From Candidatus Omnitrophota bacterium (lineage in GTDB: Bacteria; Omnitrophota; Gorgyraeia; Zapsychrales; JANLHA01), in NCBI GenBank assembly GCA_023247795.1, contig JAHFFT010000004.1, positions 9,739 through 73,738 on the forward strand: 64,000 nt of DNA, read 5' to 3'. The position numbers and the translations under genes are program-made. The notes under the pieces were generated by a model. It saw only the letters and a list, made by a program, of their open reading frames with translations. It had not been told where the DNA came from and searched no databases. Shown one piece after another: positions 30,701 through 46,199 of this stretch. The stretch's first letter is position 1. Every line of letters begins with the position of its first letter.

Positions 30701-30911
30701 GAATCCTGGCCTTCATCGCAAAGGCGGCTTTATTGGTGAACGTGACTGCCAGCAGCGTCTGAAAATTCCTGGGGTCGGCGACAAACGAGGGATGGAATAA
30801 CAGCTGGACATAGCGCTGGGCCAAGGCATAAGTCTTCCCCGAGCCGGCCGAGGCCTCAACCATGCGGATTTCTGGAAATTCAAAAATTTTTGCCGAAGAA
30901 GGATTCATCAA
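27741..30911 (-). CDS. addA: AddA-like UvrD/Rep superfamily-1 helicase with a C-terminal RecB-type nuclease.
   Basis: 1056 aa. Walker A is EASAGSGKTY. SF1 helicase motifs are present. The C-terminal sequence is RPDRIIVGAKDVLVIDFKWSL. Confidence 0.8.
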   Translation of the reverse strand: MMNPSSAKIFEFPEIRMVEASAGSGKTYALAQRYVQLLFHPSFVADPRNFQTLLAVTFTNKAAFAMKARILQLLKRIAFQDLSPVEEKDILRSIGLSQVQASKIAFQMMESIIHHYHYFQVQTIDKLINSFLLGCAFKLGLTTHFQIRNNAIVYLEQALDSVIDQAQHQEPLQKLFRHFLHNYLYLENRGNWFPKKDILAILYSLNQLKNVYAHDFKRSPFAPEDLIKKKRLILSAMKKLFDQLPEETNASFRKGIEQFLKKHEQSFDIDSVSDYFARSEIPLRKDAKVPSELDRLWAQIHQHLIELCEEEAVSLFDPYLGIFEPVHQSLLQICMKEDVVFLDELNRKARLLFEQGQLSVEELYFRLATRFRHYLWDEFQDTSRLQWKNLYPLIEESLAAAGSLYYVGDRKQAIYDFRGGDARLFDEVTESFSSTQLHREVLVKNWRSQKAVVEFNNQIFSIINLKRFIQEKTNHEESKNRSASAIQFNETDFKRLEQVFQHAQQEVHQEKLDGYVQFEFIDIANKDERDEVIHEKLLGLVKDLHQRYVYQDMAVLTRSHAESEQVTHWLLTQGIAVDSERTSSIRENSIILELIDFLKFLDSPIDNAAFISFIGGEIFASVTQQTKEFWHDFIFQLRERSRQKESFYHYTEFRQQFPKLWEAYFDEYFRNIGLYPLYEMIVSIYHRLGVLQRFPGDQGFLMRFLELIKEQEQEHADISSFLKYFEGLDGEELYVRITDRDAVKVLTIHKAKGLEFPVVILPFLGMKVQVGSRTEQQYSYVTVSDGQQIQLLRLKEKYYKFSDRLSRIYRQQYLDALFIELNNVYVALTRPQEELYAFIPQRTGQNLNFLKFLIPPSWFRHGQPGTAIFKSKEAKAELIKIPQAQYHDWMEFLRDEFVSAGELKNRRQRLHGQHMHALLAFIGNLHDRPLIEILQELKAQADLQFSETDIIDPVMDRIKNFLQDSRVKPFFDLAEGQVFCEQEIVNSYGHTKRPDRIIVGAKDVLVIDFKWSLDQQGRNQAQVLEYMKILAELYPQRTIKGFLVYLDSFDVEAVHE

Positions 30912-31006
30912 TCACGAAGGAAGGATTGTTCAAATCGGAAATGAGCCGAAGGTTGTCCTAGAAGGACTCCCTCAGCCTTAACAGTGCTCATCTTAATGGA
31001 TGGCCC

Positions 31007-32344
31007 CTATTTCATCAACAACAAAAGCATGTCCGCGAGTTCGGGGTCGATTTGCTGCAAATATTTAAATTCCCGTCTGGCCGAATCATGATCTTTGAGC
31101 ATCGCGTAAGCGAATCCCAAATGATAATGAGCCTGCTTATGATCGCTGTTCCGACGGAGAACTTCTTTAAAACAACGGACCGAATCCTTAAACCGCTTCA
31201 ACTTAAGATTGGCCATGCCTAACTGAAACTGCGCCTCCTGATTTGTCGGCTTCACCCTCACGGCCTTTTGCAACGCCTCCCTGGCGTCTTCCCATCGTTC
31301 CAGTTTCGCCAGATAAAGCTGACCCATATGGAAATAGATTTCATCGTCCTTGACCAATCGGCAGGCATTATTAAAGGCTTGCAGCGCATCTTCATAGCGG
31401 CCAAGATTATTGTAAATCAAACCGATTTGTTTGTAGGCATCGCTTTGTTCCGGGTTCAAATGAATCACTTTACGGAAGGAATCTTGTGCCTCTTGATCAC
31501 AGCCCAAGGCCTGATAGGCTAGACCCAACGCGTAATAAGCCTGCCAATGAACAAGATCGATTCCGATGGCATTCTTCAATTGTTCAACCGCCTTATGAAA
31601 GGCTTTGCTTTCATAAAAAATTTTTCCCAAATGATAATGAAAACTGGCCTCTTGCGGACTAACCATAATGGCCTTTTCTAAAGCAGCGACTGCGTCCTGG
31701 TGCTGGCCCAGTCGAGCGTACGCGAGTCCAAGATTGAAATAACTTTTAGAGTCAGGAAGACCGATGGGCTTAAAACGAAGCTGGGCTAAAAAAGCCCGCC
31801 AGCGGTTTCGATCAAAATCAGACCGAAATTTTTCCAATACTTCGGGGACCGTTAAAAACCCGACGTACGTCAAAAGCACGACAAAATTAAAATAAAGTCG
31901 GAAAAAATAATCTAAAAAATGTTGATCCCCCCATTTCATCGTCGCCAAAAAAATCAGAACAACAAAATGGACAATGCACATGACGATGAATGATGACCGG
32001 GCAACGGCATTCAATCTGAGAATGCCCGCGCCGCAGCTGATCGCCATGAAGATCCAAATCAAGTACGAGGTGGCGTCCTCTTTCAAATAGCCAACCATAA
32101 AATCCAAAGGGAAGACCGCGCCCATGGCGATGAAATTGCGATATTTCTGCCAGTAACTGTCATCGGGCTGAAAATGCAGAACCAAAATGAGGAGATTGAA
32201 AACAATGATGCTCCAACCGATAAGCTTGATGCTTAATAAGTTGTCTTTAGTTGCCATATGTGCGGAATGCCGACCATCGCTGTTACGGGAAAGAGATTGG
32301 AACATGAACTCGACAACACTTCGCGTGCAGCCGATCAGCGCCAA
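31007..32344 (-). CDS. Polytopic membrane protein with a C-terminal TPR-repeat domain.
   Basis: About five N-terminal TM helices followed by at least six TPR repeats (AxxxLGxAYxxLGxxxEAxxxFxKAL pattern). The start is uncertain (track 32344; alternative ATG at 32257). Confidence 0.6.
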   Translation of the reverse strand: MALIGCTRSVVEFMFQSLSRNSDGRHSAHMATKDNLLSIKLIGWSIIVFNLLILVLHFQPDDSYWQKYRNFIAMGAVFPLDFMVGYLKEDATSYLIWIFMAISCGAGILRLNAVARSSFIVMCIVHFVVLIFLATMKWGDQHFLDYFFRLYFNFVVLLTYVGFLTVPEVLEKFRSDFDRNRWRAFLAQLRFKPIGLPDSKSYFNLGLAYARLGQHQDAVAALEKAIMVSPQEASFHYHLGKIFYESKAFHKAVEQLKNAIGIDLVHWQAYYALGLAYQALGCDQEAQDSFRKVIHLNPEQSDAYKQIGLIYNNLGRYEDALQAFNNACRLVKDDEIYFHMGQLYLAKLERWEDAREALQKAVRVKPTNQEAQFQLGMANLKLKRFKDSVRCFKEVLRRNSDHKQAHYHLGFAYAMLKDHDSARREFKYLQQIDPELADMLLLLMK

Positions 32345-32395
32345 GAACTCTTCTTTTTGGTCGTCGGGTCAATTGGGACAACAATGAAAAATTTA

Positions 32396-32896
32396 TTAAA
32401 GTTCTTCTGCCTCTGCCTTCTGTTTGGCTTTTCTTCTCTTTTCAAAAACTCCCTTAATCACATCCACAAGCAGTTCGGTCGTGAAAGGCTTGGAGACATA
32501 GTCATCGACGCCGTAAGCCTCGGATAAAGCATCCGCGCCTTTCGCTTCCGGCAGATTTCCCCGGCCTTTGGTCATGGGATTGTTCGGCTGCCATTTGAAT
32601 TCGTCCTTTTTTTTGTTATAAATCATCTCCCCTTTACCGCTCACCATGACAATGGGGATGTCTTTTGTTGCCGGATTTTTTCGAAGAATGGCCGCGACCT
32701 CATCTCCTCTGCGGCCCGGCATCACAACATCCACAAGGACAATATCCGGCTTTTCCCGCTGAACCAGTGTTTCCGCTTCCAACGCGTTTGACGTTGTCAC
32801 GACCTCAAACCCTCCGGTATCTTCCAGGTTTCCTTTCACCATAAGGCAAAGGTCTGGTTCATCGTCGATCATAACAATTTTTTTCTTTTCCGGCAT
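32396..32896 (-). CDS. Single-domain response regulator (REC only) with an internal insertion.
   Basis: IVMIDDEPD…DIVLVDVVMPG…SKPF marks the acidic pocket, phospho-Asp and Lys. AGGAGGA sits upstream of ATG at 32896. There is no output domain. Confidence 0.8.
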   Translation of the reverse strand: MPEKKKIVMIDDEPDLCLMVKGNLEDTGGFEVVTTSNALEAETLVQREKPDIVLVDVVMPGRRGDEVAAILRKNPATKDIPIVMVSGKGEMIYNKKKDEFKWQPNNPMTKGRGNLPEAKGADALSEAYGVDDYVSKPFTTELLVDVIKGVFEKRRKAKQKAEAEEL

Positions 32897-32918
32897 AAAT
32901 ATCCTCCTTGAATGATTG

Positions 32919-34967
32919 TTAAATTTTCGCTCTCGTTTCATCCTCTGCCGGCTGTAACAGACTTTGATCTTCCACCGGCAAGGTGATCGTAAACGTCGTC
33001 CCTTTATCGATCTTGCTTTCAACACTGATGTGCCCATGGTGCCGCTCGACGATCAAATAGACCGTGCTCAACCCCAGGCCTGTTCCTTTGCCCGGTTCCT
33101 TGGTCGTATAAAAAGGATCAAATATCTTCGGAAGACGATTTTCCGGAATTCCCTCACCAGTGTCCTTGATTTTGATGACTACCTGCCCTTGATCTTGCGA
33201 TCCCTTTTTTGGGATATGATGACCGACCACAATTTCAATGTCACCGCCCCGCGGCATCGCGTCAATGGCATTGGCCATCAAATCAAAAATAGCCTGCTCA
33301 AGCATCAGCTGATCCCCGTAAACAATTTTTTGGGCAATGGAACAGCTTTCGTGGATCTGAACATTATTCAATTGCGCGTTGTTGCGGATCAAAGACACCG
33401 ATTCATGGATCACCTGACAAATGTCGACGGGCTTCATATCCATCTGCGAAGAACGGGAGTATTTCAAGATCGAGGTAACAACATCATTGGCCCGCTGTGA
33501 GGCGCTTTTAACGATTTTGATGTAAGGCATTTCCTCTTCTTCATTCCTTTTGATCGCCGCTTTCTCTAACCGCTCCATGCCCTGCATGATCACCGCCAAA
33601 GGATTTTTGATTTCGTGAGCGAACCCGGCGGCCAAGGTTCCGATCGTCGCCATTTTCTCGATTTGAATCATCTGCTGCTGCGTTTCCTTCAATTGTCGAT
33701 ACGCCCTTTCCCGCTCCTGAACCATGGCCTTGAGAGCATTCGCGTTGGTTAACAAATTTTTATTTAACGTCCTCAATTCATCTTCAAATCCTTTACGTTT
33801 GGTGATATCGCTTCTGATCGAAACATATTGGAAAGGCTGTCCATTCTCATCGAGCAGAGGGACAATGGTGCTGTCAACCCAATAAAACGTCCCGTCTTTT
33901 GCCCGATTCCTGATCTCTCCCTTCCAGACTTTTCCGTTGGCAATCGTCTTCCATAAATTCCGAAAAAAATCTTTCGGATGATATCCGGAGTTGATGATCC
34001 GATGATCTTGGCCCAACAGTTCCTTGCGGCTGTATTGCGAGATCTCACAAAATTTATCATTGGCATAAATGATCTTGCCCGCCGGGTCAGTGATCGCCAC
34101 AATCGCGTGCTGGTCCAGCCCCGACTTGATGTTCTCCAGCTCCCGCAGCGATTGATCTAGTTTGGCGGCCAAGCGCTTACGTTCGCGGATGTCCCGCATG
34201 ATACCGATCGATCCCGTGATTTCACCGTCGGGATTTTTCAAAACACTGATGGAGATGTCAATATCAATCAAATTTCCGTCTTTATCATAAACCTGCGTTT
34301 CCAGATGACGGTCTTTCCCATACTGGCGGATTTGATAAGACCGGATCCGTTTCCATTCTTCGGGAGGATATAAGGAACGGACCGTCTTGTTGAGCAATTC
34401 TTTTGTTTCAAAACCCAATAAATTCACGGCCAGCTTATTGCAGGCGACGATCCGTTCCTTTTCATCGGCAAAGGTGATCGCAACGGCCGAATTATGAAAA
34501 ATCGTCCGGAATCTTTCTTCTGACTCACGGATCTTTTCGATGTTCGCCAAAAGCTGGGTTTCGCGTTTCGCAAGTAAGGCTTCCAGGCTTTCCTGGTAGC
34601 GGCGCATGATGTCCCGCAACGAGACCATACCAACGATCGCACCATTTTGGGTGACCGGCAGATGACGGATATTTTTCTGCCGCATCAATTCCAAAACTTC
34701 ACCGTAACTCTCGTCGTGTTCGACAGTGATGAGGTTTTTGGTCATGATGTCGGCCATCATGGTGTCCTTCAATCGTTCCGGTCTGGCCACATCGAGTTTA
34801 GCCAAGAGGTCCCGTTCGGTAAAAATACCGATGGGCTCATCCTGGCGATCCCTGACCAAAAGCGCGCCGATTTTCTCTCGGCGCATGAGTTTGAGCGATT
34901 CGATGAGCGGAGTATCATCAACGACCGAGATGATACTTTTTGTCATATATTCTGAGATAGGTTTCAT
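32919..34967 (-). CDS. Sensor histidine kinase: CBS pair + PAS domains + HisKA + HATPase_c.
   Basis: Two N-terminal CBS modules, the H-box FAHEIKNPL, and G1/G2 boxes (DTGEGIP, GTGLGLS). It has no TM segment, so it is a cytoplasmic sensor. Confidence 0.85.
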   Translation of the reverse strand: MKPISEYMTKSIISVVDDTPLIESLKLMRREKIGALLVRDRQDEPIGIFTERDLLAKLDVARPERLKDTMMADIMTKNLITVEHDESYGEVLELMRQKNIRHLPVTQNGAIVGMVSLRDIMRRYQESLEALLAKRETQLLANIEKIRESEERFRTIFHNSAVAITFADEKERIVACNKLAVNLLGFETKELLNKTVRSLYPPEEWKRIRSYQIRQYGKDRHLETQVYDKDGNLIDIDISISVLKNPDGEITGSIGIMRDIRERKRLAAKLDQSLRELENIKSGLDQHAIVAITDPAGKIIYANDKFCEISQYSRKELLGQDHRIINSGYHPKDFFRNLWKTIANGKVWKGEIRNRAKDGTFYWVDSTIVPLLDENGQPFQYVSIRSDITKRKGFEDELRTLNKNLLTNANALKAMVQERERAYRQLKETQQQMIQIEKMATIGTLAAGFAHEIKNPLAVIMQGMERLEKAAIKRNEEEEMPYIKIVKSASQRANDVVTSILKYSRSSQMDMKPVDICQVIHESVSLIRNNAQLNNVQIHESCSIAQKIVYGDQLMLEQAIFDLMANAIDAMPRGGDIEIVVGHHIPKKGSQDQGQVVIKIKDTGEGIPENRLPKIFDPFYTTKEPGKGTGLGLSTVYLIVERHHGHISVESKIDKGTTFTITLPVEDQSLLQPAEDETRAKI

Positions 34968-35066
34968 GATTTATACCGTGCTTGCAAGAGTAGTATATCG
35001 TATGAAAGGCGAATTCAGCAAGCGACGAAGTGAAAAATTTCGGGAGCAAAATACGGATAACTCATA

Positions 35067-35094
35067 GGGGACAGACCCTAAAGGGTCAGTCCCC
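35067..35094. repeat. REP-like hairpin GGGGACAGACCCT-AA-AGGGTCAGTCCCC overlapping the trmH stop codon.
   Basis: 13-bp arms with one mismatch. The right arm encodes the C-terminal LGD* of the TrmH-like gene. Confidence 0.6.
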
Positions 35095-35622
35095 AAGCTT
35101 CGCAAACTGCGAGCGGATCTGATACGCCACGACCCCAAAGGCAACCGCGGCATTGAGCGAATTCTTCGCACCGGCCATCGGGATTTCCACGGCACCATCG
35201 CAAAGGGAGAGGAGTTCCAGTGAGATCCCTTCAATTTCATTGCCAACAATCAGACAGATCGGAAAAAGAACTTCAAACTGATCAAAATTAAGACTTTGCT
35301 CAGTCTGCTCCAAAGCAATAATGGCGTAGCCTTGGTCTTTCAAAGACCTCACAACGGCAAGGACATCGTGGGAGTGCTCCCAGGGAACACGGTCTTCGGC
35401 TCCGAGGGCAGTTTTCGTAATCTGCGACTGGGGAGGAAAACCGGTAATCCCGCAGAGCCAGAGTTTTTCCACTCCCACTCCGTCAGCGGTCCGGAAAATG
35501 GCACCGACGTTGTGTAGGCTTCTGATATTATCCAAAACAACAATTAACGGAATGGCCTTTTCCTTTGCTCGGTGCTGCTGACGGTCAACAATTTCCTGAT
35601 GAGTTAATTTGCGCATTCTCAA
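35086..35622 (-). CDS. SpoU/TrmH-family RNA 2'-O-methyltransferase.
   Basis: 178 aa with a SPOUT knot (…LDNIRSLHNVGAIFRTAD…, …IVGNEIEGIS…). Confidence 0.75.
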   Translation of the reverse strand: MRMRKLTHQEIVDRQQHRAKEKAIPLIVVLDNIRSLHNVGAIFRTADGVGVEKLWLCGITGFPPQSQITKTALGAEDRVPWEHSHDVLAVVRSLKDQGYAIIALEQTEQSLNFDQFEVLFPICLIVGNEIEGISLELLSLCDGAVEIPMAGAKNSLNAAVAFGVVAYQIRSQFAKLGD

Positions 35623-35637
35623 AATTTCAACGGGCCT

Positions 35638-36510
35638 TCATATTCTCATAATGATCGGATTAAAAGCCTTAGCAGCGACCAGAACGCGATCACCGACATG
35701 CCAATCTTTCGCTTCATCTTCGGTCGCGACAACCTTCGTCAAATGATTTCCGATTTGGACCGTCACAATATTAAGGAAATCTTCCCTCTTGAGCTCCAGG
35801 ATATTCCCCACAAATTTGAATTTGCCGCTCAAGGCCTCTTCTCCAAAAATCGCGCTTGGTTTGCCGGAACGACTGATCTTCCCTTGTTCTAAAATAAAAA
35901 TTTGGCTGGAAATTTTAAAAATTTCACTCAAGTCATGTGTGACAAAAACAGTTGGGATCTTAAGACGCTCATAAAGAGCGAGGATTTCATCCTGCAATTT
36001 CAGTCGTAGCTCCAAATCCAAGGAGGAAAGCGGTTCGTCCAATAAAAAAATCTTTGGTTTCCTTAACAAAGCCCTGATCAACGCCACCCGCTGTTTTTGC
36101 CCGCCAGAAAGTGTGTCGGGTTTGCGATCTTTCAGTTCCGTGAGCCGCGCCATTTCTAACAACTCCTGAATCATCCCCTCTTCCTCTTTGTCTTTAAGGG
36201 CGTACCGCAAATTTTCCAGGATGGTCATGTTCGGAAAAAGATTGTAATCTTGAAAAACAAAACTGATTTGCCTTTCTTGAACAGGCCGGTTGATGCCTTT
36301 GTCGCTGTCAAACCAGACTTCATCCTCCACTTGGATGAACCCCTCTTCGGGATCGGTCAAACCCGCGATCATTCGCAGAATCGTTGTCTTGCCAGCGCCC
36401 GATGGGCCAAAAAGGGTTATCAATTCCTTATCGGCTATCTGAAAATCCACCGCAAGCCGCATTGGGCCGTGACTTGTCAGCAAACTTTTCTTGGCCCTTA
36501 CTTTTATCAT
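35638..36510 (-). CDS. modC: Molybdate/tungstate ABC transporter ATP-binding protein with a C-terminal TOBE domain.
   Basis: Walker A GPSGAGKTT, signature LSGGQKQRV, and a C-terminal TOBE/Mop domain. Confidence 0.8.
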   Translation of the reverse strand: MIKVRAKKSLLTSHGPMRLAVDFQIADKELITLFGPSGAGKTTILRMIAGLTDPEEGFIQVEDEVWFDSDKGINRPVQERQISFVFQDYNLFPNMTILENLRYALKDKEEEGMIQELLEMARLTELKDRKPDTLSGGQKQRVALIRALLRKPKIFLLDEPLSSLDLELRLKLQDEILALYERLKIPTVFVTHDLSEIFKISSQIFILEQGKISRSGKPSAIFGEEALSGKFKFVGNILELKREDFLNIVTVQIGNHLTKVVATEDEAKDWHVGDRVLVAAKAFNPIIMRI

Positions 36511-37181
36511 GACATGACCTTGAAATCTTTTTTATTGACAACATTCAAAACAAATAAAATTCCAAAGGAAATTAAAAACAAGACACCCGAATAGAAATTG
36601 GCGGTCGTATAGTTCAACGCTTCAACCTCGCCAAAAATCGCGATGGACGCCACCCGTGTTTCGCCGGGGATATTTCCGCCAATCATCAAAACCACACCGA
36701 ATTCTCCAACGGTATGGGCAAAGGCCATCACGATCCCCGTCCATAGAGCCGGTTTGATGTTCGGGAGAATGACTTTTAATAAAGTTTCCCTTTTCGACTT
36801 TCCCAACGCATAAGAAGCTTCAATTAAAGACTTCGGGAAACTCTGAAAGCCAGCTTTAATGGGATTAACCATAAACGGTAAGCTGAATAACACCGATCCA
36901 ATCACCAATCCCCAAAATGTAAAAACGACTTTGATATGAAAAAATGTTTCTAGAAAACTTCCTAAAAACGAGCGTGGGCTAAAAAAAAGGAGGATATAAA
37001 AACCTAACACCGTAGGCGGCAGCACCAGCGGCATGCTGACGAGCGGCTCGATGACATATTTCCATTTACTGCGGGTCAACGCAATCCAATAGGCAAGCGG
37101 AATCCCGATGAGCATCAGAATGACCGTCGTCACCAATGCCAATTTGAATGTCAGAATCAGTGGGTTCCAATCAAGGCTCAT
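36507..37181 (-). CDS. modB: Molybdate ABC transporter permease.
   Basis: 224 aa, five or six TM helices, with the EAA-like loop (…EASYALGKSKRETLLKVILP…). Confidence 0.8.
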   Translation of the reverse strand: MSLDWNPLILTFKLALVTTVILMLIGIPLAYWIALTRSKWKYVIEPLVSMPLVLPPTVLGFYILLFFSPRSFLGSFLETFFHIKVVFTFWGLVIGSVLFSLPFMVNPIKAGFQSFPKSLIEASYALGKSKRETLLKVILPNIKPALWTGIVMAFAHTVGEFGVVLMIGGNIPGETRVASIAIFGEVEALNYTTANFYSGVLFLISFGILFVLNVVNKKDFKVMS

Positions 37182-37585
37182 GCGGGGTTCTTCATCAATG
37201 TCACTTCATTGGTTTTAACCAGCCACTCCACTTCTTCTTTGTCTTTGAGTTTCATTTGCAGCACGGATTGCGTTGAGATGATCGACTCAATCGTGTGACT
37301 TCTATAGCGAAGCGTGACCTTGGCTAAAATCGGGCCTTTGTCTATTTTCGTGACCACGGATTTAAAGCGATTTCGGAAACTGATCATGCCAGTCAAATCT
37401 TTTGCGATCCCGACTTCAGTTTCCTTAAAAAGCAGCGTCACGGCATCTTTGATTTTGTAATTCGCGCCTCCCATCTTTCCTTCCAAAACGATGGAACTAA
37501 AAACATCTCCCTCAACATCCACATGAATGATCGAGATGTTATCTGATGATTGGATGTCCTTAATTTTTCCTTTGAGTTTGTTCAT
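37178..37585 (-). CDS. Di-TOBE (Mop) molbindin-like protein.
   Basis: Two tandem TOBE-like beta domains (MNKLKGKIKDI… and a second half). ATG at 37585 is preferred. Confidence 0.7.
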   Translation of the reverse strand: MNKLKGKIKDIQSSDNISIIHVDVEGDVFSSIVLEGKMGGANYKIKDAVTLLFKETEVGIAKDLTGMISFRNRFKSVVTKIDKGPILAKVTLRYRSHTIESIISTQSVLQMKLKDKEEVEWLVKTNEVTLMKNPA

Positions 37586-37640
37586 GCTAACCTCTACGGG
37601 TTGAATTATAAAAAATCCCACTGACCCCTATTATTCACGC

Positions 37641-38402
37641 TTATTGTGGCAAAACATAACCGTATTTTTTAAAAATTTCTCCGGCCGCATTGGAATAAAG
37701 AAAATCAAAAAATTTTTTGGCGTCTTCCAAATTTCCTTTCCGCGCCTGTTTGAGGATGACAACACCCTGCGCGATCGGTTCATAAGCGGCCTTTTCGATT
37801 TCGATCCATTGCCCCTGATCCTTCATGTTGGGGGCCAGCACAATCGATTTGGCTGTCACGCCAACATCAGCGGCTTTGGACATGATGAATTGATTCGTCT
37901 GCGCGACGCTTTCACCGTAAACAAATTTTTTGTTGACCTTCGAATAAAGATTGTAATATTTGATCGCGTTAACGGCTTGACGCCCATAGGGCGCGGTCTT
38001 AGGAGAGGCAATGGCTATTTTCCCGACGGTGGGATCACCGAGGACCTTGATCCCTTTTGACAGATCCACGCCATTCATCGTCCAAAGCACCAAAGTTCCA
38101 TAAGCGTAAATCTTCGGGGCATTGTACGTGAGACCTTCCTTCTCTAACGTCTGCGGATAATCCATGTCCGCGGACAGAAAAATATCAAATGGCGCGCCGT
38201 TTTCGATCTGTGCCGTAAATTTGCCTGATGATCCAATGATCTGCTTTACGGCAATCCCTGTTTCTTTCTGAAATTCCGCTTTCAGTTCTTCAAACGTGTA
38301 TTGAACATTGGCGGCCACGGCAACGGTCAGATCCCCGGCAAAGGCATACACCGAGGAGCATAAAATAAAAAAAACCGATAACGCAAATGATTTGATTTTC
38401 AT
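37641..38402 (-). CDS. modA: Molybdate-binding periplasmic protein.
   Basis: Signal peptide plus a ModA-like SBP fold (…AANVQYTFEEL…SSG… pattern). Confidence 0.8.
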   Translation of the reverse strand: MKIKSFALSVFFILCSSVYAFAGDLTVAVAANVQYTFEELKAEFQKETGIAVKQIIGSSGKFTAQIENGAPFDIFLSADMDYPQTLEKEGLTYNAPKIYAYGTLVLWTMNGVDLSKGIKVLGDPTVGKIAIASPKTAPYGRQAVNAIKYYNLYSKVNKKFVYGESVAQTNQFIMSKAADVGVTAKSIVLAPNMKDQGQWIEIEKAAYEPIAQGVVILKQARKGNLEDAKKFFDFLYSNAAGEIFKKYGYVLPQ

Positions 38403-38419
38403 GATGATCCTCTGTTATT

Positions 38420-39736
38420 TTAAAATTTAAAAGCCATTTGTGAATAAAACCAATCAACGTCATCATGCGCGCCACTGTCTTTCACATATTCACCGGAAAA
38501 GAAATGCGCGTAACCGGATTCCCATTTGATATTTTTATTAAGATCGTAATACACGCGTAAAGAGAGCTCAGAACCGACAAAATACCCTCTATCGCCACTG
38601 GTTTTTGAACGCACGGCTGTTCCTGATGAGTTATACCAAGAATCAAATTTGCTATTAAGCCAGAAAAAATCGACTTGCGGCGTGAACTTGAATTTCTCTG
38701 TTGGCGAGAATGTCATGCTCACTTCCGGATTCCGCATATTTTGCCAGCGAAAAAAATCTAAAAGCCCATAAAGTTCATGGGTGGATTGATACAATGGTAT
38801 GAAAGTATTATTGACGCTGTCATTGGGATCTTTATCACCGGAGGCCTCATCATAAGCCGCCATCATCTTAGGTTTCCATTGAACAGCTTCCCAACTTTTT
38901 ATCACATCCGCATGAAACGCGTAAGCCTTAATCTCTTTCTTCATAACGGTTGCCGATCCGGTGTGACCGAATTGATACGGCACTTCAATATCCAGGACGG
39001 CACCTTCCGCGATATTGGTTTGCAGCCTCGCTCCGGCGGTATACCGCTGGATGTCATTTCTTCCCTTAATATCTTTCATCTCCAAAAAATAAGTCTCGAC
39101 CAGCGGGGCCATCTTGTGCTTTTGATATCCGCTGTAAATCCCAGTTAAAAATTCTTCCGACCGAGAATTATTGAATTTATCATCATCGTATTTGACATCC
39201 TGACCATAAATCAAATCCGCCCACAAACCAACGTTTTGATAATGAAGCACTCCTCCATCAAAGGCGCGGATGCGATTAGCCCAAACAGGCGCGGCGATCA
39301 ATCTCCCCTTGCCGTATTTCAATTCCTGACGACCGACCTTAATATCAAAATCAGAGCCTAAAATATTGTGCAGGTTCGCGTAAGCTTGATGCAAATCAAA
39401 ATCGTCGACTTGATTGGCGGCCGCTTTAATCTGATAGCCACCCGTTTGGGTATCCAATCCTTCTAAAAAAATATCTGCCTTGGGTTTGAGGTATTCATCC
39501 ATTAAACTCGCTAAGCCGCCCAAACGAAAACGGTGATAGAACTGACTGCCATTGTCTTTGCGGCTTTGATTGAAATCAAAATCTTTTTTATACTCATAAC
39601 GAAATCGCTCTTCACCGGTCATTTTAAAATTCCATCGCGAGAATTCCGGTTTATCATCGGCACAAATTAACGATAGCCTGGTCCAGATCAGTAACATGAA
39701 AATTATTAAAATTTTAAAATTTTTCAAAAATTTCAT
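38420..39736 (-). CDS. Alginate-export (AlgE-like) family outer-membrane beta-barrel porin.
   Basis: Signal peptide MKFLKNFKILIIFMLLIW…, an aromatic-rich beta-strand pattern, and a C-terminal …YSQMAFKF (OMP terminal Phe). ATG at 39736 is preferred over the track start at 39859. Confidence 0.6.
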   Translation of the reverse strand: MKFLKNFKILIIFMLLIWTRLSLICADDKPEFSRWNFKMTGEERFRYEYKKDFDFNQSRKDNGSQFYHRFRLGGLASLMDEYLKPKADIFLEGLDTQTGGYQIKAAANQVDDFDLHQAYANLHNILGSDFDIKVGRQELKYGKGRLIAAPVWANRIRAFDGGVLHYQNVGLWADLIYGQDVKYDDDKFNNSRSEEFLTGIYSGYQKHKMAPLVETYFLEMKDIKGRNDIQRYTAGARLQTNIAEGAVLDIEVPYQFGHTGSATVMKKEIKAYAFHADVIKSWEAVQWKPKMMAAYDEASGDKDPNDSVNNTFIPLYQSTHELYGLLDFFRWQNMRNPEVSMTFSPTEKFKFTPQVDFFWLNSKFDSWYNSSGTAVRSKTSGDRGYFVGSELSLRVYYDLNKNIKWESGYAHFFSGEYVKDSGAHDDVDWFYSQMAFKF

Positions 39737-39749
39737 CTCATCTATCCTT

Positions 39750-40322
39750 TCATTTTTTCGAACGTATTCCGATTGACCAAATGTCCAATACCCCCTCCAG
39801 AGCATCGGCGAAAGAAATCCGCTCCTTCTCCAAAAATTCCGGATTAAGAACCTGATCAATCGCCCCCATATACATCCTTACAGCCAAGGCTGAATTGATC
39901 TTGCGAAACTTTCTCTTTTTGATCCCCTCTTCGATCAAGGCTTTAATTTCGAAAATCTTCTCGTTGCGAAAATTGAGAAAGCGCGTCCACAAATCCGGCA
40001 ATTCGGATTTGATGTCTCCTAAAAAACGCTCAAACCAGGGAGCTAACCGCTGTTGTAGAAAAAAAATATTTTTGGAAATGACTTCAACCGGGTCTTTGTG
40101 ACTTTCCTCTATTAAGGAAAGTTCGTGGTTAATCTCTTTCTCTAACCGGCCGAAAATGGCTTCGGCCATTTCGATTTTACTGGTGAAATGTTTATAGATG
40201 GTGTTCTTGCTCATGACCAAATCCTGAGCGATCTCATCCATCGTCACCTTGCGATAACCGAACTTTAACATCCGGCCCATCGCGGCATCCAGAATCCGTT
40301 CGCGGGTTAAATCTTTCGACAT
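39750..40322 (-). CDS. TetR-family transcriptional regulator.
   Basis: N-terminal HTH RERILDAAMGRMLKFGYRKVTMDEIAQDLVMSKNTIYKHF. ATG at 40322. Confidence 0.8.
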   Translation of the reverse strand: MSKDLTRERILDAAMGRMLKFGYRKVTMDEIAQDLVMSKNTIYKHFTSKIEMAEAIFGRLEKEINHELSLIEESHKDPVEVISKNIFFLQQRLAPWFERFLGDIKSELPDLWTRFLNFRNEKIFEIKALIEEGIKKRKFRKINSALAVRMYMGAIDQVLNPEFLEKERISFADALEGVLDIWSIGIRSKK

Positions 40323-40340
40323 CGCCGCCCCCTTCATAAT

Positions 40341-40375
40341 TAACGTAAAATACTAATTGCGTATTTTTAGTATCC
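40341..40375. promoter_or_regulatory. Candidate TetR operator: overlapping dyads AAAATAC-TAATTGCG-GTATTTT and TACTAA…TTAGTA.
   Basis: Palindromes 20-50 nt upstream of the tetR start. Identified by eye only. Confidence 0.35.
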
Positions 40376-40438
40376 TATATGTTGCGGCGACACTTGTCCA
40401 TAAAATATTGCTGATAGAAATTTGTATGGAGGAACAAT

Positions 40439-40479
40439 AAAAAAATTGCCGGCCACCCCGCCTAAGCGGGACAACCGGC
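40439..40479 (-). terminator. Rho-independent terminator for gap: GC-rich hairpin GCCGGCCACCCCGC-CTAA-GCGGGACAACCGGC followed on the minus strand by a U7 tract.
   Basis: The hairpin lies about 45 nt 3' of the gap stop. The plus-strand A7 run at 40439-40445 is read as a T-tract on the coding strand. Confidence 0.55.
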
Positions 40480-40523
40480 TATTTTATTAAAATGCTAACC
40501 GAGATGTCCTTATTGCTGAAACC

Positions 40524-41627
<1,104 letters not shown>

Positions 41628-41685
41628 TTATTTTCTCTGCGCCGGGGCAACAGGGGACCACACCCCGGGAGTCCAACTCCCCATG

Positions 41686-41703
41686 TTCAACCCCGGGGGT
41701 TGG
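41686..41703. repeat. Palindrome TTCAACCCCGGGGGTTGG overlapping the fmt stop. It encodes the fmt C-terminal residues NPRG*.
   Basis: Same motif as 4914-4931. Confidence 0.7.
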
Positions 41704-42631
41704 TTAATACAGTACCCACGGATATTTTATGGCCGGCAATGAATGTCCTGATCTCCATTGGTTTTGCCGATTCCAGATGGACCTTTTTGATCAACAAGGC
41801 GCCGCGGCCGGCTTGGACAATCACCCCGCCCTCATTGACCTCAATGACCTCGCCGGCTTGTTTGCTCGTCGCTAGGCCTTTGCTCGTTTCCGTCTCTAAA
41901 ATCTTAAGCTGCCGGCCTTCCCAATACGTATAAGCCGAAGGCCACGGGACAAGGCCGCGGACCAGGTTATGGATCTGTGCGGCCGGTAACCGCCAATCAA
42001 TCAATCCCAGCTCTTTGGTTAACTTTGGGGCTAAGCTGACCTGACGATCATCTTGCTTCTTTCGTCGAACCTGCCCTTTTTCAAAAGCAGTTACCGCATC
42101 AAGCAGGATGTCTGCTCCCAATACAGCTAATTTTGTTCTCAACGTGACCGCGTTATCATTTTCTTGGATCGCGATACTCGACTGCGAAACAATATCCCCG
42201 GCATCCATCTGCTCGTTCATTTGGATCACCGTGACACCGGTTTCCTTTTCACCTTTTAGGATCGCCCAATTGATCGGTGCTGCCCCGCGATATTTTGGCA
42301 GTAAAGACGCGTGAACATTGATCGCTCCCAACCGCGGTATGCCCAAAATCCGGCCCGGCAAAATTTGGCCGTAAGCAATCACGATGAAAAGATCAGCTTG
42401 ATAAGACTGCAATTGTTTGGCCCATTTTGGTTCGCTGAAATCCGGCGGCTGCAAACAATCCATCCCCTGCTCTTGGGCCAAAACCTTAATCACGGACGCT
42501 GTTACTTTCAACCCACGGCCCTTGGGCCGATCCGGCTGAGTGACTGCGGCCACGATTTTCTGCCCTGAATCGATCAACTTTTTCAGACTGACCGCTGCAA
42601 AATCATCACTGCCGAAAAAAATGATTTTCAT
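41687..42631 (-). CDS. fmt: Methionyl-tRNA formyltransferase.
   Basis: N-terminal formyltransferase fold (…NVHASLLPKYRGAAPI…) plus a C-terminal tRNA-binding domain. Confidence 0.9.
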   Translation of the reverse strand: MKIIFFGSDDFAAVSLKKLIDSGQKIVAAVTQPDRPKGRGLKVTASVIKVLAQEQGMDCLQPPDFSEPKWAKQLQSYQADLFIVIAYGQILPGRILGIPRLGAINVHASLLPKYRGAAPINWAILKGEKETGVTVIQMNEQMDAGDIVSQSSIAIQENDNAVTLRTKLAVLGADILLDAVTAFEKGQVRRKKQDDRQVSLAPKLTKELGLIDWRLPAAQIHNLVRGLVPWPSAYTYWEGRQLKILETETSKGLATSKQAGEVIEVNEGGVIVQAGRGALLIKKVHLESAKPMEIRTFIAGHKISVGTVLTNPRG

Positions 42632-42656
42632 GTTCTCCTATCCATTCTCATCTAGT

Positions 42657-42688
42657 GTGGGGACAGTCCCTAAAGGGACGGTCCCCAC
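42657..42688. repeat. REP-like hairpin GTGGGGACAGTCCCT-AA-AGGGACGGTCCCCAC.
   Basis: 15-bp arms with one mismatch. Intergenic between the priA stop and the fmt start. Confidence 0.6.
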
Positions 42689-42695
42689 ACCACAT

Positions 42696-44461
42696 TTACG
42701 GATCCACGTTGATCGTAACGATAACACCTTTCTTATTTTTAAACCCACGAATAACCGGCCGGATCCGCTTGATCAACTTCTCCACGAACACGGTCTTTAA
42801 CATTATAGAAAACCGATACTGTTTACGCAACTTGAAGGAACCCACCGCTTGTGGATCAAAGATCTGTTCCTGCTTGGTCAAACATGAAGTTAACGCCGCG
42901 TATAGCTGATTGGCTAAATCAGCAACAACATCTTCTTTTTTTCCTCGAAGCTGGATAGAAATGAAATGTTGATATGGCGGAAATCCTAAGTTCCGACGGT
43001 GTTTCAATTCTTGTTGATAAAATCCCGCAAAATCCGCCTTCCCCACCGACGCCAACGTATATTCCTGGGGCTGATAAGTCTGGATCACCAACTTTTTCTG
43101 CGCCACCTGACGAAAATGCATGAGCAGACTGAAGACCCGATGCGCCGAATGGAAATCAAAACGATTGAGCTCTGAATCAATCGCCAACACGGCCAGCAGA
43201 CGCGGATGAATACGCCGCAAATGTTTCACAACCGCTTGTGTTGCCACAATCACATTGGCCTCTTCAGGAAACCGGGCAGATTCCTGATCAAACCTTGCCA
43301 CTCGCGCGTAAGGAAAAAATTTCTTCAAGTCGGCTTCGACCTTGACCACACTGGCCTGCCAATTCTGCAAACGCCGCTCCTGGTCAGAACCCGCAGCCGG
43401 TGGATAAAAATATTTGATTTGATCGTTACGGGTTTCTTCCCGCGGCCCCTTACGGTTAAAAAAAACCACCACCTTACCGTCGTTGGCCAACGCTTCTTCA
43501 ATGTGATTGATCATCGGGTAAGACAAATACGTTCCTTTTCGCGGTTTATAATTCGCCAGGTCAACGATCGTGGTATCAGCCCATTGCTTATTCAAAAAAA
43601 TCTCGACGCTAATTTTTTTCTTTTTAATTATCCCCCACAATTCAGGAGAAGGGCAGGGACTGACAAACACCACATCACATCCCTCGAATTTCTGACGCAT
43701 AAAAACCACGTCCCGGGTCTGATAGCGTGGAGATTGCTCCTGCTTGTAGGCACTGTTGTCTTCTTCATCCATAACAATCAACCCCAATTGATCGACAGGA
43801 GCAAAAACCGCGGAACGCGTCCCCACCACGACCCTTGATGTTCCGTTTTTGATGCTCGTCCACTGCACCAACTCTTCGCTGGGTTTCAACTTTCTATCAA
43901 TCACCGCGGCGATTACGGCGCACGCGCCTTCAATCATGGATTTGACACTTTCAATCAAATTCACTTCCGGGACCAAGACAATGACGCCCCGGCCTTGCGC
44001 CAAAGCATCTTTGATTTTTTTAAAACAACTGGCCAGCGCCCATCACCCTGCTGATCATGGCACAAAATGGTTTCTCCTTGCTGTTGGGGAACCGGATCAT
44101 CCCGACGAGCAGCAAAGTTTGAGACCGTTTTGCGTCGAAGGACCGCGGGCAGACTGCTTTCAATCGCCTCGCCCCAGGAGCAACCGTAATAATCACTGAA
44201 TGTTTTTGCCAAGGTGAGTTGTGTTGCAGATAGCGCCGGATCAAGTTCGTCGAGAAGTGCCAATACCGGCTTTAAATTTTTGATGGGACTTTGTTTCCGC
44301 AAACCGATCACGTAACCGATCGTTTTACGGAACGCAAACGAAACATAAACCCGCTGCCCTTCTTTGACTTTGTCTCGAAACGCTTCCGGCAAAAAATAAT
44401 CAAACGGCCCTTCGACCGGCAATCCAAGTACAACTTGGGCGATGCGATTGTTCATTTTCAA
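42696..44461 (-). pseudogene. priA: Primosomal protein N' (PriA) split into two ORFs by a -1 frameshift in a 7-nt homopolymer. It also has an atypical Walker A.
   Basis: The N-terminal ORF (44461→43961) ends …ETILCHDQQGDGRWPVVLKK|SKMLW…. Adding one T/A to the T7 run at 44016-44022 gives …VVLKKIKDALAQGRGVIVLVPEVNLIE…, continuous with the 42696..44003 ORF (helicase motif II MDEED, C-terminal Zn/CTD region). GDGRW replaces the canonical GSGKT. Confidence 0.75.
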
Positions 44462-44478
44462 ATGCGGGTTGAATTTGG

Positions 44479-45570
44479 TTAAGATGCTGTGACGAATGCT
44501 GCGATATCTCTGGCCGCATGCGGTTTAGCAAGAACAGCGATTTTTTCTTTAACGGCGGATAATTCGGATTGAGAGACCTGGTAGCGTCGCAGCACTTCTG
44601 CCATCTTATCTATCGGGACATCGCTCAGACCGACGCCATATTCTTTCAAAATTTGAACGTTGTGCTGTTCCTGGCCGGGAATGGCGCTAAAAAATATCAA
44701 GGGCAGTCCGCAGACCAGACCTTCGGAAATGGATAAACCACCCGGCTTGGTGATCATCGCGTCAGCGGCTTTCATCAGTTCGTCCATATTGTCGACCAAA
44801 CCCTGCACTTTGACAAGCTCTCTTTTCCAGCGGCCGAGCCGACGGTAAAGATTTTTGTTGTGTCCGCAGACCACGATGATCTGAAACCCGTCCAAGGCTT
44901 CAATCACCTCATCAATCGGGCCGATGCCGAAGGAACCCGTCGCTACCAGCACGGTAAAAACATCGGGCTGCAATCCCAGACGGCGGCGTAAGGCCGAAAC
45001 ATCGACCGATTCCGCGAAGCGATGGTCGGTCGGAATGCCGGTGACTTTGATCTGACCAGCCGCGACCCCCAGTAGCTGCAATTTTGTCTTTGTCCGGTCG
45101 CAAGCCACCGCGTAGAAATCGATCCCCTTTGACACCCAGATGCTGTGGACATCAAAATCGGTAATGACCGCTATGACTTGCGAATGGATTTTGTCGCTCC
45201 GTTTCAAATAAGAAGCCACTTCGTTGGGAAAAAAGTGGGCTGAATAAATTTGATCAAACTGCTCTTTGATCAAAAACTTGTGCAAACCAAAACCCATGAC
45301 GGAATTTTGCGTCCGTCGAAGGAACCTGACAACCGGCCCAAACCATTTTTGATCCAACAGTTCAAACACCACTTTCCAAATCCAAGGGAAATGAGAAATC
45401 ATCACCGTGTAGGAACCGCTGTAAAACGGTTTATACCCTTTGCAGGTATGGTCAAGCGCATCGACGATCCGGACATCATGGGACCCTTGTTTTTTGAGTT
45501 CGGCAAAAATGGCCTCAGCGGCTCGACGATGGCCGGCACCAGCGGTTGCGTGAATCACCAATATTTTCAT
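44479..45570 (-). CDS. MGDG-synthase-like / UgtP-type diacylglycerol glycosyltransferase (GT28).
   Basis: N-terminal MGDG_synth domain (…HATAGAGHRRAAEAI…) plus a C-terminal GT28_C domain. Confidence 0.75.
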   Translation of the reverse strand: MKILVIHATAGAGHRRAAEAIFAELKKQGSHDVRIVDALDHTCKGYKPFYSGSYTVMISHFPWIWKVVFELLDQKWFGPVVRFLRRTQNSVMGFGLHKFLIKEQFDQIYSAHFFPNEVASYLKRSDKIHSQVIAVITDFDVHSIWVSKGIDFYAVACDRTKTKLQLLGVAAGQIKVTGIPTDHRFAESVDVSALRRRLGLQPDVFTVLVATGSFGIGPIDEVIEALDGFQIIVVCGHNKNLYRRLGRWKRELVKVQGLVDNMDELMKAADAMITKPGGLSISEGLVCGLPLIFFSAIPGQEQHNVQILKEYGVGLSDVPIDKMAEVLRRYQVSQSELSAVKEKIAVLAKPHAARDIAAFVTAS

Positions 45571-46199
45571 TTTCGCTTCGCAAACTTTACGGGTTTTCTT
45601 GCGGTAAGAAGCGGACGGGACGTTTTTTTGCGAGGCGCCGGTTTACCGTTGCCATCGAGGATAACTTTGACGGCCTCCAAAAGGTCTTTGGTGATGGTGT
45701 CCGGATGGACTTTCCATTTTCGCATATACCGACGATCTTCGCGTCCAGAGAGAACAAAGATCGTCTTGCAACCGGCATTATGTCCGGCAAGGATGTCGGT
45801 CTCGGTATCACCGACAAAATAAGTTTTTCCAGCCGACCGTAAATTTTTATTCATCGACCGCAGGGCCTCACGAATAAAACCAATGCCTGGCTTACGGTAA
45901 TCGCAGTGTTGTCCGCCGCGGGCAATGGCATAATAAACCCGGTCGATCTTGCCGCCGGCCCTCTCCACTTCACGGAACATCTTGATCGTAATCTGGCTGA
46001 GTTTGTTCTGGCTGTAAACACCCTTCTCGATGCCAGCCTGATTGGAAATCACGACGATCTTGTAACCAGCCTGGGTCAAACGCTGGATGGCCTCGAGCGA
46101 GCCAGGGATGAAATGAAAATCCTTAGCACGGGTAACGTAATTGCCGTTTCCCGGGAATTTATTGATGACACCATCGCGATCTAGGAAGACTAATTTCAT
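45567..46199 (-). CDS. gmhB: HAD-IIIA phosphatase (D,D-heptose-1,7-bisphosphate phosphatase GmhB-like) with a basic C-terminal tail.
   Basis: The MKLVFLDRDGVIN motif and …GDTETD…. Confidence 0.75.
   Translation of the reverse strand: MKLVFLDRDGVINKFPGNGNYVTRAKDFHFIPGSLEAIQRLTQAGYKIVVISNQAGIEKGVYSQNKLSQITIKMFREVERAGGKIDRVYYAIARGGQHCDYRKPGIGFIREALRSMNKNLRSAGKTYFVGDTETDILAGHNAGCKTIFVLSGREDRRYMRKWKVHPDTITKDLLEAVKVILDGNGKPAPRKKTSRPLLTARKPVKFAKRK

Follow-up and report, generated by a model that had tools for sequence, protein, structure and literature searches.

An AlgE-like outer-membrane porin and a TetR-family regulator in a predicted molybdate/tungstate uptake operon of Candidatus Omnitrophota

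Passage of molybdate and tungstate through the outer membrane is usually credited to general porins. ModG of Azotobacter vinelandii is an earlier example of a free tandem molbindin encoded among mod genes. Among the proteins compared below, AlgE has an arginine-rich pore adapted to anions, and XdhR of Streptomyces and AmtR-GlnK are TetR-family regulators with metabolic or protein effectors. The molybdenum cofactor (Moco) riboswitch controls molybdate transporters, Moco biosynthesis genes, and Moco-using enzymes (PMC2408646). The locus described here lies in a 64-kb stretch of contig JAHFFT010000004.1 from a Candidatus Omnitrophota bacterium (the window). Six co-directional genes on its minus strand (35638-40400) encode a TetR-family regulator, an AlgE-like porin, the periplasmic binding protein ModA, a molbindin, the permease ModB, and the ATPase ModC. 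A sequence-only reading of this DNA had claimed the order tetR, barrel, modA, TOBE protein, modB, modC, and all six genes are present in that order.

The importer itself, ModABC with a ModG-like molbindin, is ordinary. Two components are unusual. The first is an operon-encoded outer-membrane anion channel, which belongs to a clade of the "alginate export family" that accompanies ModABC, TupABC, WtpA, and MOT1. The second is a TetR-family regulator with a defined operator in the place of ModE or the Moco riboswitch. Neither a dedicated outer-membrane channel for molybdenum or tungsten (Mo/W) nor a TetR regulator of mod genes was found described in a full-text literature search, which did not cover subscription papers. 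The earlier observation is confirmed, its interpretation is supported by comparative genomics, and the comparisons suggest that the AlgE-like porin and the TetR protein are recurring, unrecognised parts of Mo/W acquisition. Gene identities, the coupling of the genes, operator conservation, and the Mo/W context of the porin and TetR clades are read from the aligned sequences; from these we infer that the porin conducts or prefers molybdate/tungstate, and that TetR binds the operator and represses.

The porin and its genomic neighbours

The porin gene (38420-39736, minus strand) encodes a 438-aa protein with a signal peptide and a C-terminal Phe. A profile scan that covered a single genome for each species collected 77 porin loci; neighbouring genes were annotated by tblastn or blastp, and representatives were confirmed by Pfam and NCBIfam. 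The porin is at least 39% identical to that of the window in 49 of the 77 loci, and 46 of these 49 had enough flanking sequence to be evaluated. A Mo/W uptake component is adjacent to the porin in 34 of the 46. ModA-ModB(C) accounts for 19 loci, and a TupA-type binding protein with a TTTS signature together with TupBC for 11; this signature marks TupA-type binding proteins (PMC4139814). WtpA (TIGR03730, 283 bits against a cut-off of 242.75) is adjacent in one locus, and a MOT1-family molybdate transporter alone (PF16983) in three. Four further loci have only Moco or molybdoenzyme genes nearby (MoaB/MogA, MoeA, MoaA, MobA, FdhD, XDH family). In locus L027, a Moco riboswitch (57 bits) heads mobB, mobA, modE-N, fdhD, porin, and tupABC, and in L017 the porin lies within a formate dehydrogenase, mobB, modE-N, porin, modABC, moeA, moaA, moaC, moaB cluster.

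The hosts of the porins at or above 39% identity are labelled Omnitrophota, Elusimicrobia, Kiritimatiellae, and Lentisphaerae; Candidatus Omnitrophota is among the names given by the sources of the homologues. Locus L015 is from the complete genome of the omnitrophote Velamenicoccus archaeovorus LiM (CP019384). These porins formed one clade in a neighbour-joining tree, apart from homologues of Verrucomicrobia, Acidobacteria, and Bdellovibrionota (at most 34% identity), which mostly have no Mo/W neighbours; the exceptions are L054 and L062, with modA-modB. We estimate that about 1% of random genes would have a Mo/W transporter no more than a few kb away. The association of the porin with Mo/W genes is therefore far beyond chance, though many of the genomes are related. 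The phylogenetic co-occurrence of the porin with modA, which had been proposed as a check, thus came out positive: the porin stands beside Mo/W transporters in 34 of 46 loci and in several phyla.

In several operons with the same arrangement, the slot between tetR and the transporter is filled by a porin of a different family. Loci L115, L117, and L118 have the order tetR-X-modA-TOBE-modB-modC and L098 has tetR-X-MOT1, where X is an OprO/OprP-family porin of 474-492 aa (PF07396, 98.9 bits). That two unrelated anion-channel families share this slot is the strongest argument for regarding an outer-membrane channel as a working part of these uptake systems instead of a bystander.

The same substitution can be read in another way. 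The barrel could be a general or broad oxyanion pore (for sulfate, phosphate, and molybdate) that stands near anion importers for convenience, and the OprP family, known for phosphate, can take its place in sister operons. Several observations weigh against a Mo/W-specific channel. A paralogue in L022, 53% identical to the window's porin, follows a cysTWA-type sulfate transporter, and eight of the 46 loci have none of the molybdenum genes nearby. Many of the related loci come from closely related metagenome-assembled genomes, so the counts overstate the number of independent events. The mature, 412-aa porin has 51 K+R against 58 D+E, that is, no net positive charge, and the placement of its conserved arginines in the lumen follows from strand parity alone. 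Against a general pore, four types of Mo/W uptake system or Moco genes are adjacent in 38 of the 46 loci, across several phyla, where about 1% would be expected by the above estimate, and no pst or other anion-system association was seen in the same locus set. We consider the general pore unlikely, and a molybdate/tungstate entry channel is the most likely role of the porin on these comparisons.

Two loci of the set contain further anion-transport genes. In L022 (2096-3442, 4561-7302, 8001-9197), an OprP-family porin lies upstream and the AlgE-like porin downstream of the cysTWA transporter; some members of the clade may serve sulfate, and the channel may be a broader oxyanion pore. In L026 (9339-9866), a half-size chromate-transporter-family protein (PF02417) is encoded right after tetR-porin, in the usual place of modABC, and is followed by XDH-family molybdoenzyme genes. 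It may be an alternative inner-membrane molybdate carrier.

By sequence family the porin matches PF13372 (Alginate_exp) only, at 193.1 bits against a cut-off of 25.2 and over positions 5-388 of the 395-position profile; PF07396 (OprO/OprP) was not matched. The AlphaFold2 model is an 18-strand barrel (pLDDT 79.8), whose top 17 fold matches in the PDB are all AlgE (E about 1e-14, TM 0.65-0.68, 10-11% identity). A sequence search of the PDB returned no AlgE and only one spurious match (E 0.04), so the link to AlgE needed the predicted structure. Strand parity suggests a lumen-facing position for the conserved residues R44, R46, R69, R231, and R376, and equally for conserved acidic residues. An argument for selectivity from the pore lining was tried and dropped, strand parity being too crude for it.

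Public annotation calls the porin homologues only "alginate export family protein". That the barrel exports an alginate-like polysaccharide and lies in a mod operon incidentally is suggested by the PF13372 score of 193 bits and by AlgE as best structural match. Identity to AlgE is only about 10%, the PDB sequence search did not find AlgE, and no polysaccharide synthesis or AlgK/AlgX-type genes occur among the called genes of the contig or in the inspected neighbourhoods of related loci. No alginate genes were found among the called genes of the porin contig, where the neighbours are gap, tetR, modA, TOBE, modB, modC, and spoU. The Mo/W context is consistent, and an exporter is scarcely credible; this reading and that of an incidental neighbour were rejected on gene context. 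The sequence-only reading had instead suggested a specific channel for oxyanion entry, which agrees with the low identity to AlgE, the lack of alginate genes nearby, and relatives that adjoin modA, tupA, wtpA, and MOT1.

The TetR-family regulator and its operator

The first gene of the unit, tetR (39750-40322, minus strand), encodes a 190-aa TetR-family regulator. A consensus scan placed a sigma-70-like promoter upstream of it (40372-40400, minus strand), consisting of TGGACA at -35 (40395-40400), a 17-nt spacer, and TAGGAT at -10 (40372-40377); the -35 box falls just beyond the segment that had been described before. Orthologous loci have TTGACA-17-TAnAAT with the same placement relative to the operator. 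The candidate TetR operator, ATACTAAAAATACGCAATTAGTAT, is a 24-nt element (40350-40373, minus strand) made of a 7-nt inverted repeat with a 10-nt spacer, ATACTAA-N10-TTAGTAT. It includes the final two bases of the -10 box and the probable start of transcription, and this position argues for repression by blocking RNA polymerase. The paired dyads that had been reported upstream of tetR are indeed two perfect, overlapping 7-nt dyads within 40347-40373 (AAAATAC/GTATTTT, 40347-40367; ATACTAA/TTAGTAT, 40350-40373). They are unique in the window, where the pattern ATACT-N14-AGTAT has a single occurrence; 0 of 100 shuffles contained it.

The operator is conserved. In the aligned tetR upstream regions of 15 genome loci, whose TetR proteins are 49-81% identical to that of the window, a 24-nt core ATACTAAAAATACnnAATTAGTAT directly follows and overlaps the TAnAAT -10 box, which itself lies 17 nt below the TTGACA -35 box, while the flanks diverge. 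A weight matrix built from these 15 sites detects exactly one site in the window (40.6 bits). Outside the matrix-building set, sites were found before tetR in L026 and in L078-L082 (30-45 bits). In the porin set, 16 of 16 operons that carry tetR have the operator before it. No other sites of at least 30 bits were found in the approximately 1 Mb of loci scanned. No site of at least 18 bits precedes modA in L012-L015, where there is an insert between porin and modA, or the porins of loci without tetR. Binding of TetR at the candidate 24-nt operator is most likely, as judged from this conservation.

As a control based on DNA alone, 241 million metagenome records were searched for the exact pattern ATACTNAAAATACNNAATYAGTAT. 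This resulted in 35 stretches, of which 25 hold TetR-headed molybdenum operons. In 24 of the 35, the motif is followed at 37-105 nt, in its own orientation, by the start of a TetR-clade gene, and in one it is followed by a B12-binding radical-SAM gene and then by tetR and XDH. The remaining 10 are unrelated; examples are copZ-copA and an RND efflux pump accompanied by a different TetR. In L086 and L092, from a low-GC (36%) organism, the 24-nt pattern is flanked by a different, unrelated TetR-like gene and by an MFP-RND efflux operon, before which it stands at about -130 to 0. It may be a convergent or distantly related operator.

About 27 nt of leader separate the operator from the tetR ATG. 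The earlier statement that there is no riboswitch-sized leader holds: an Rfam scan of 30000-46000 yielded no family at threshold and no match to the Moco riboswitch (RF01055) at E of at most 1. A signal for the flavin mononucleotide (FMN) riboswitch within a PAS histidine-kinase ORF (33908-34048, minus strand; 21 bits against a gathering score of 66, E 0.36) was rejected as almost certainly chance. Scans at gathering score of 27 related loci found the Moco riboswitch only in L027. In L012-L015 the stretch from the operator to the tetR start contains a hairpin (CCCGTTAGAG...CTAACGGGG) that is conserved in this subgroup, some 30-90 nt before tetR (e.g. L012:7345-7395); it is absent from the window.

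A sigma-70-like sequence, TTCACA-16-TAAAAT (10/12), is also present at 38417-38444 (minus strand), within the 3' end of the porin gene and just 5' of modA. It could be an internal promoter for TetR-independent expression of modABC. Such a promoter would fit a tetR that is an unrelated neighbour controlling itself or distant genes, with porin-modABC expressed on its own. This is very improbable, since tetR and the porin gene are 13 nt apart without a terminator, more than 35 loci preserve a tetR-porin or tetR-mod order, and the operator occurs once per locus, always heading these operons.

The TetR protein has an N-terminal helix-turn-helix (PF00440, 43.9 bits against a cut-off of 24) and an all-helical C-terminal domain, with 10 helices in the AlphaFold2 model. 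It falls outside all NCBIfam equivalog families, each score being far below cut-off. Its homologues at 53-95% identity are all from Omnitrophota where the source gives a name. The cargo of the TetR-headed operons is modular: an AlgE- or OprP-like porin, ModABC or MOT1, a Mop-like protein, a B12-binding radical-SAM protein, and an XDH-family molybdoenzyme with MobA, XdhC, MoeA, and MoaA. Homologues also head porin-free tetR-modA-TOBE-modBC operons and operons of the type tetR-XDH-family enzyme-MobA-XdhC-MoeA-MoaA.

In L017 and in Tup-type loci, a gene with a ModE-N-type helix-turn-helix occupies the position equivalent to tetR; a ModE-N gene is present in the sister loci L017, L027, L033, L044, and L047. 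A tblastn search with a ModE-N query found no ModE (TIGR00637 type) in the 64-kb window, and no other molybdenum genes were found elsewhere in the window by tblastn. The suggestion that a TetR protein is a non-canonical regulator of mod genes is supported by the conserved operator and by the other molybdenum operons that TetR homologues head. By these criteria of sequence and gene order, it is most likely the repressor of a molybdenum regulon.

The signal that TetR reads is a separate question. The composition of its regulon is that of the Moco riboswitch regulon, which favours a signal of molybdenum or Moco status; this is our best guess, held at even odds. Three observations weigh against it. 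Aromatic and hydrophobic residues make up most of the ligand domain, in which few polar residues, and no Cys or His, are conserved. Both sequence and fold place it nearest, though weakly, to TetR proteins that bind acyl-coenzyme A (acyl-CoA) or CoA thioesters (TM about 0.6). An aromatic ligand domain and CoA-type relatives fit an organic effector better than an oxyanion. Ligand binding takes classical TetR proteins off the DNA, and feedback by molybdate would need the opposite sign. An attempt to identify the effector from alignment conservation and fold search yielded only the weak similarity to acyl-CoA-type TetR proteins and was not decisive.

TetR could instead leave its operator on binding an organic compound, for example a CoA thioester or a heterocycle that is the substrate of the XDH-family enzyme, so that molybdenum uptake, Moco synthesis, and the enzyme would be induced together on demand. 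The uptake operons and the tetR-XDH-MobA-XdhC-MoeA-MoaA operons share the operator architecture, and in L026 the porin and XDH genes are apparently in one operon. The best match of the XDH-family enzyme is the alpha subunit of 4-hydroxybenzoyl-CoA reductase (737 bits, below cut-off); it is also xanthine dehydrogenase-like. The aromatic, hydrophobic ligand domain and the acyl-CoA- or CoA-thioester-binding relatives point the same way. However, the structural matches are weak (TM about 0.6), the regulon has the composition of that of the Moco riboswitch, and many TetR-headed operons encode uptake only, including that of the window, which has no XDH genes within 64 kb. An organic ligand is a serious possibility, yet rather less probable than a read-out of molybdenum or Moco status. 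The molbindin is missing from the TetR operons of L002, L012-L015, and L081, and is therefore not an obligatory same-operon partner of TetR.

A 488-aa B12-binding radical-SAM protein (PF02310 and PF04055) is recurrent in the TetR-headed molybdenum operons. It is encoded at L012:9302-10768, L078:7637-9103, and L081:5460-6926, and also in L013-L015, L087, L090, L091, L094, L103, L110, and L111. In L081 and L082 the gene is preceded by a strong operator copy of its own (45 bits). In L078 (9238-10590), tetR and the radical-SAM gene are followed by a NikR-type regulator (ribbon-helix-helix and NikR_C) and a Phenol_MetA_deg outer-membrane channel, so that here too a regulator and a channel of the outer membrane go together.

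Transporter genes, molbindin, and operon boundaries

ModA (37641-38402, minus strand; 253 aa, signal peptide) is of the molybdate type. Its TIGR01256 equivalog score of 186.2 bits exceeds the cut-off of 62.5, its scores with WtpA models stay far short of theirs, and TupA models have no match. The best relatives in the PDB are 7t4z (Pseudomonas aeruginosa) and 1atg (A. vinelandii). P. aeruginosa ModA coordinates molybdate, tungstate, and chromate through Asn33, Thr60, Tyr141, and Ile168 (PMC9171197), with which N32, S59, Y139, and V166 of the window's ModA align. By this analogy it is a classical tetrahedral-site protein and should take molybdate and tungstate. The alignment of pocket residues had been proposed as a way to tell the subtype, and the sulfate, TupA, and WtpA alternatives did not fit.

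ModB (36507-37181, minus strand; 224 aa) matches TIGR02141 at 227.8 bits against a cut-off of 182.6. For ModC (35638-36510, minus strand; 290 aa), TIGR02142 modC is the best NCBIfam match at 216.2 bits, which is below the cut-off of 285.05 because the C-terminal regulatory domain is short. A TOBE domain had been ascribed to ModC; the TOBE match in the C-terminal 62 aa is sub-threshold (E 0.039, 14.6 bits against 22.3).

The Mop/ModG-like molbindin (37178-37585, minus strand; 135 aa) is predicted to be cytoplasmic. Its second half is a solid TOBE/Mop domain (PF03459, 34.5 bits against 22.3, residues 81-142 of the longer ORF) in which the SxRN and VK motifs are kept, and the protein scores 53.8 bits with TIGR00638 (cut-off 55). 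Residues 68-132 match Mop (1fr3, 1gug) as well as each of the two repeats in A. vinelandii ModG (1h9j). The first half is a weak, degenerate TOBE (E 0.041), so that of the two TOBE domains once ascribed to it only the second is clear.

Start codons were chosen by the presence of Shine-Dalgarno-like motifs. The likely start of tetR is the second ATG (40322), which has the ribosome-binding site GAAGGGGG, and not 40337. The porin starts at 39736 (MKFLKNF...), and tetR and the porin gene therefore do not overlap. The molbindin starts at 37585. An independent gene call, from a public contig with an identical porin, has identical products of 190, 438, 253, 135, 224, and 290 aa. The junctions are 13 nt (tetR/porin), 17 nt (porin/modA), 55 nt (modA/molbindin), -4 nt (molbindin/modB), and -4 nt (modB/modC); the start of modB overlaps the molbindin stop, and that of modC the modB stop, by 4 nt each. 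The tight or overlapping junctions that had been described are thus largely as stated, except that the overlap of tetR with the porin gene disappears with the start at 39736.

The protein P0011 (618 aa, six contigs) is a public gene call in which TetR and porin form one frame, the tetR stop being missing and the porin signal peptide continuing in frame after the TetR part. It probably reflects faulty gene calling or a sequence variant rather than a genuine fusion.

Upstream, the ORF of gap (GAPDH) ends at 40524, and its intrinsic terminator (40448-40479, minus strand; a 14-pair GC-rich stem and a T run) is the upstream boundary of the mod unit. Downstream, a SpoU/TrmH-family RNA methyltransferase gene (35086-35616, minus strand; PF00588) lies 21 nt 3' of modC, and no terminator was predicted in the gap between them. 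No SpoU/TrmH homologue follows modC in the related loci. The gene may be co-transcribed with modC, but it lies outside the conserved system.

Proposed route and comparison with known systems

Taken together, the locus is probably a single transcription unit that would encode the whole route of molybdate, and probably also of tungstate, into the cell. A sigma-70-type promoter would drive tetR, porin, modA, molbindin, modB, and modC, and TetR, bound to the 24-nt palindromic operator, would repress its own operon until an effector releases it. The monomeric AlgE-fold barrel would pass the oxyanion through the outer membrane. ModA would take it in the periplasm, and ModB2C2 would pump it inward. 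In the cytoplasm, the Mop/ModG-like protein would hold it as a buffer or store and possibly as a signal.

A broader hypothesis is put forward tentatively, with somewhat less than even confidence. Crossing of the outer membrane would be a dedicated, regulated step of Mo/W acquisition in Omnitrophota and neighbouring phyla, where AlgE- and OprP-like families were independently recruited as selective channels to operons of ModABC, TupABC, WtpABC, or MOT1. In Omnitrophota, TetR would have replaced ModE and the Moco riboswitch as master regulator, sensing molybdate or Moco directly or via the Mop-like protein.

If this is true, an outer-membrane component would join the textbook ModABC, TupABC, and WtpABC pathways, a new controller of a molybdenum regulon would be added, with an operator motif usable for regulon prediction, and the anion-selective barrels would be open to direct electrophysiology. 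Matches to PF13372 serve as markers of alginate or exopolysaccharide in soil and cyanobacterial metagenome studies (PMC7154075, PMC7989815, PMC4594306); such markers would take in a large clade unrelated to polysaccharide export. The system would also be relevant to trace-metal acquisition in anoxic, molybdenum-poor groundwater and sediment, habitats named by several of the source samples.

Compared with the ModABC/ModE/ModG systems of Escherichia coli and A. vinelandii, ModA and ModB, and probably ModC, are orthologous in type and the tetrahedral oxyanion pocket of ModA is kept. The free Mop/TOBE molbindin in the cluster, with its weak first TOBE half, is similar to the tandem A. vinelandii ModG (PDB 1h9j was matched). 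In contrast to these systems, the window has no ModE or ModE-type operator and TetR heads the operon instead, an outer-membrane channel is added, and the C-terminal extension of ModC is short (about 60 aa).

With the Moco riboswitch (RF01055), which heads the L027 cluster containing a porin of the clade, the window's regulator shares the mix of targets, whereas the control element here would be a TetR protein at a DNA operator, without a riboswitch. The acyl-CoA-responsive TetR proteins FadR, FasR, and KstR2 have the same helix-turn-helix, a helical ligand domain, and a palindromic operator over their own promoter. The difference from these, and from XdhR and AmtR, lies in the cargo, which in the window's TetR clade is molybdenum uptake and use.

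AlgE of P. aeruginosa (PDB 3rbh, 4afk) belongs to the same PF13372 family and has the same 18-strand monomeric barrel (TM 0.65-0.68). As in the arginine-rich pore of AlgE, there are arginines in the window porin's clade, several of them invariant. Unlike AlgE, the porin has no alginate cluster around it, shares about 10% identity, and stands in a context of small-oxyanion import and not of polymer export. The closest functional analogue of the operon-encoded channel is OprP/OprO with PstSCAB in the Pho regulon of Pseudomonas, where the same logic is seen: a substrate-specific anion channel is co-regulated with a high-affinity ATP-binding cassette (ABC) importer of that anion. The window's porin is from another family, its inferred substrate is molybdate/tungstate and not phosphate, and it is encoded in the operon of the importer; in L098, L115, L117, and L118, true PF07396 members fill the very same slot.

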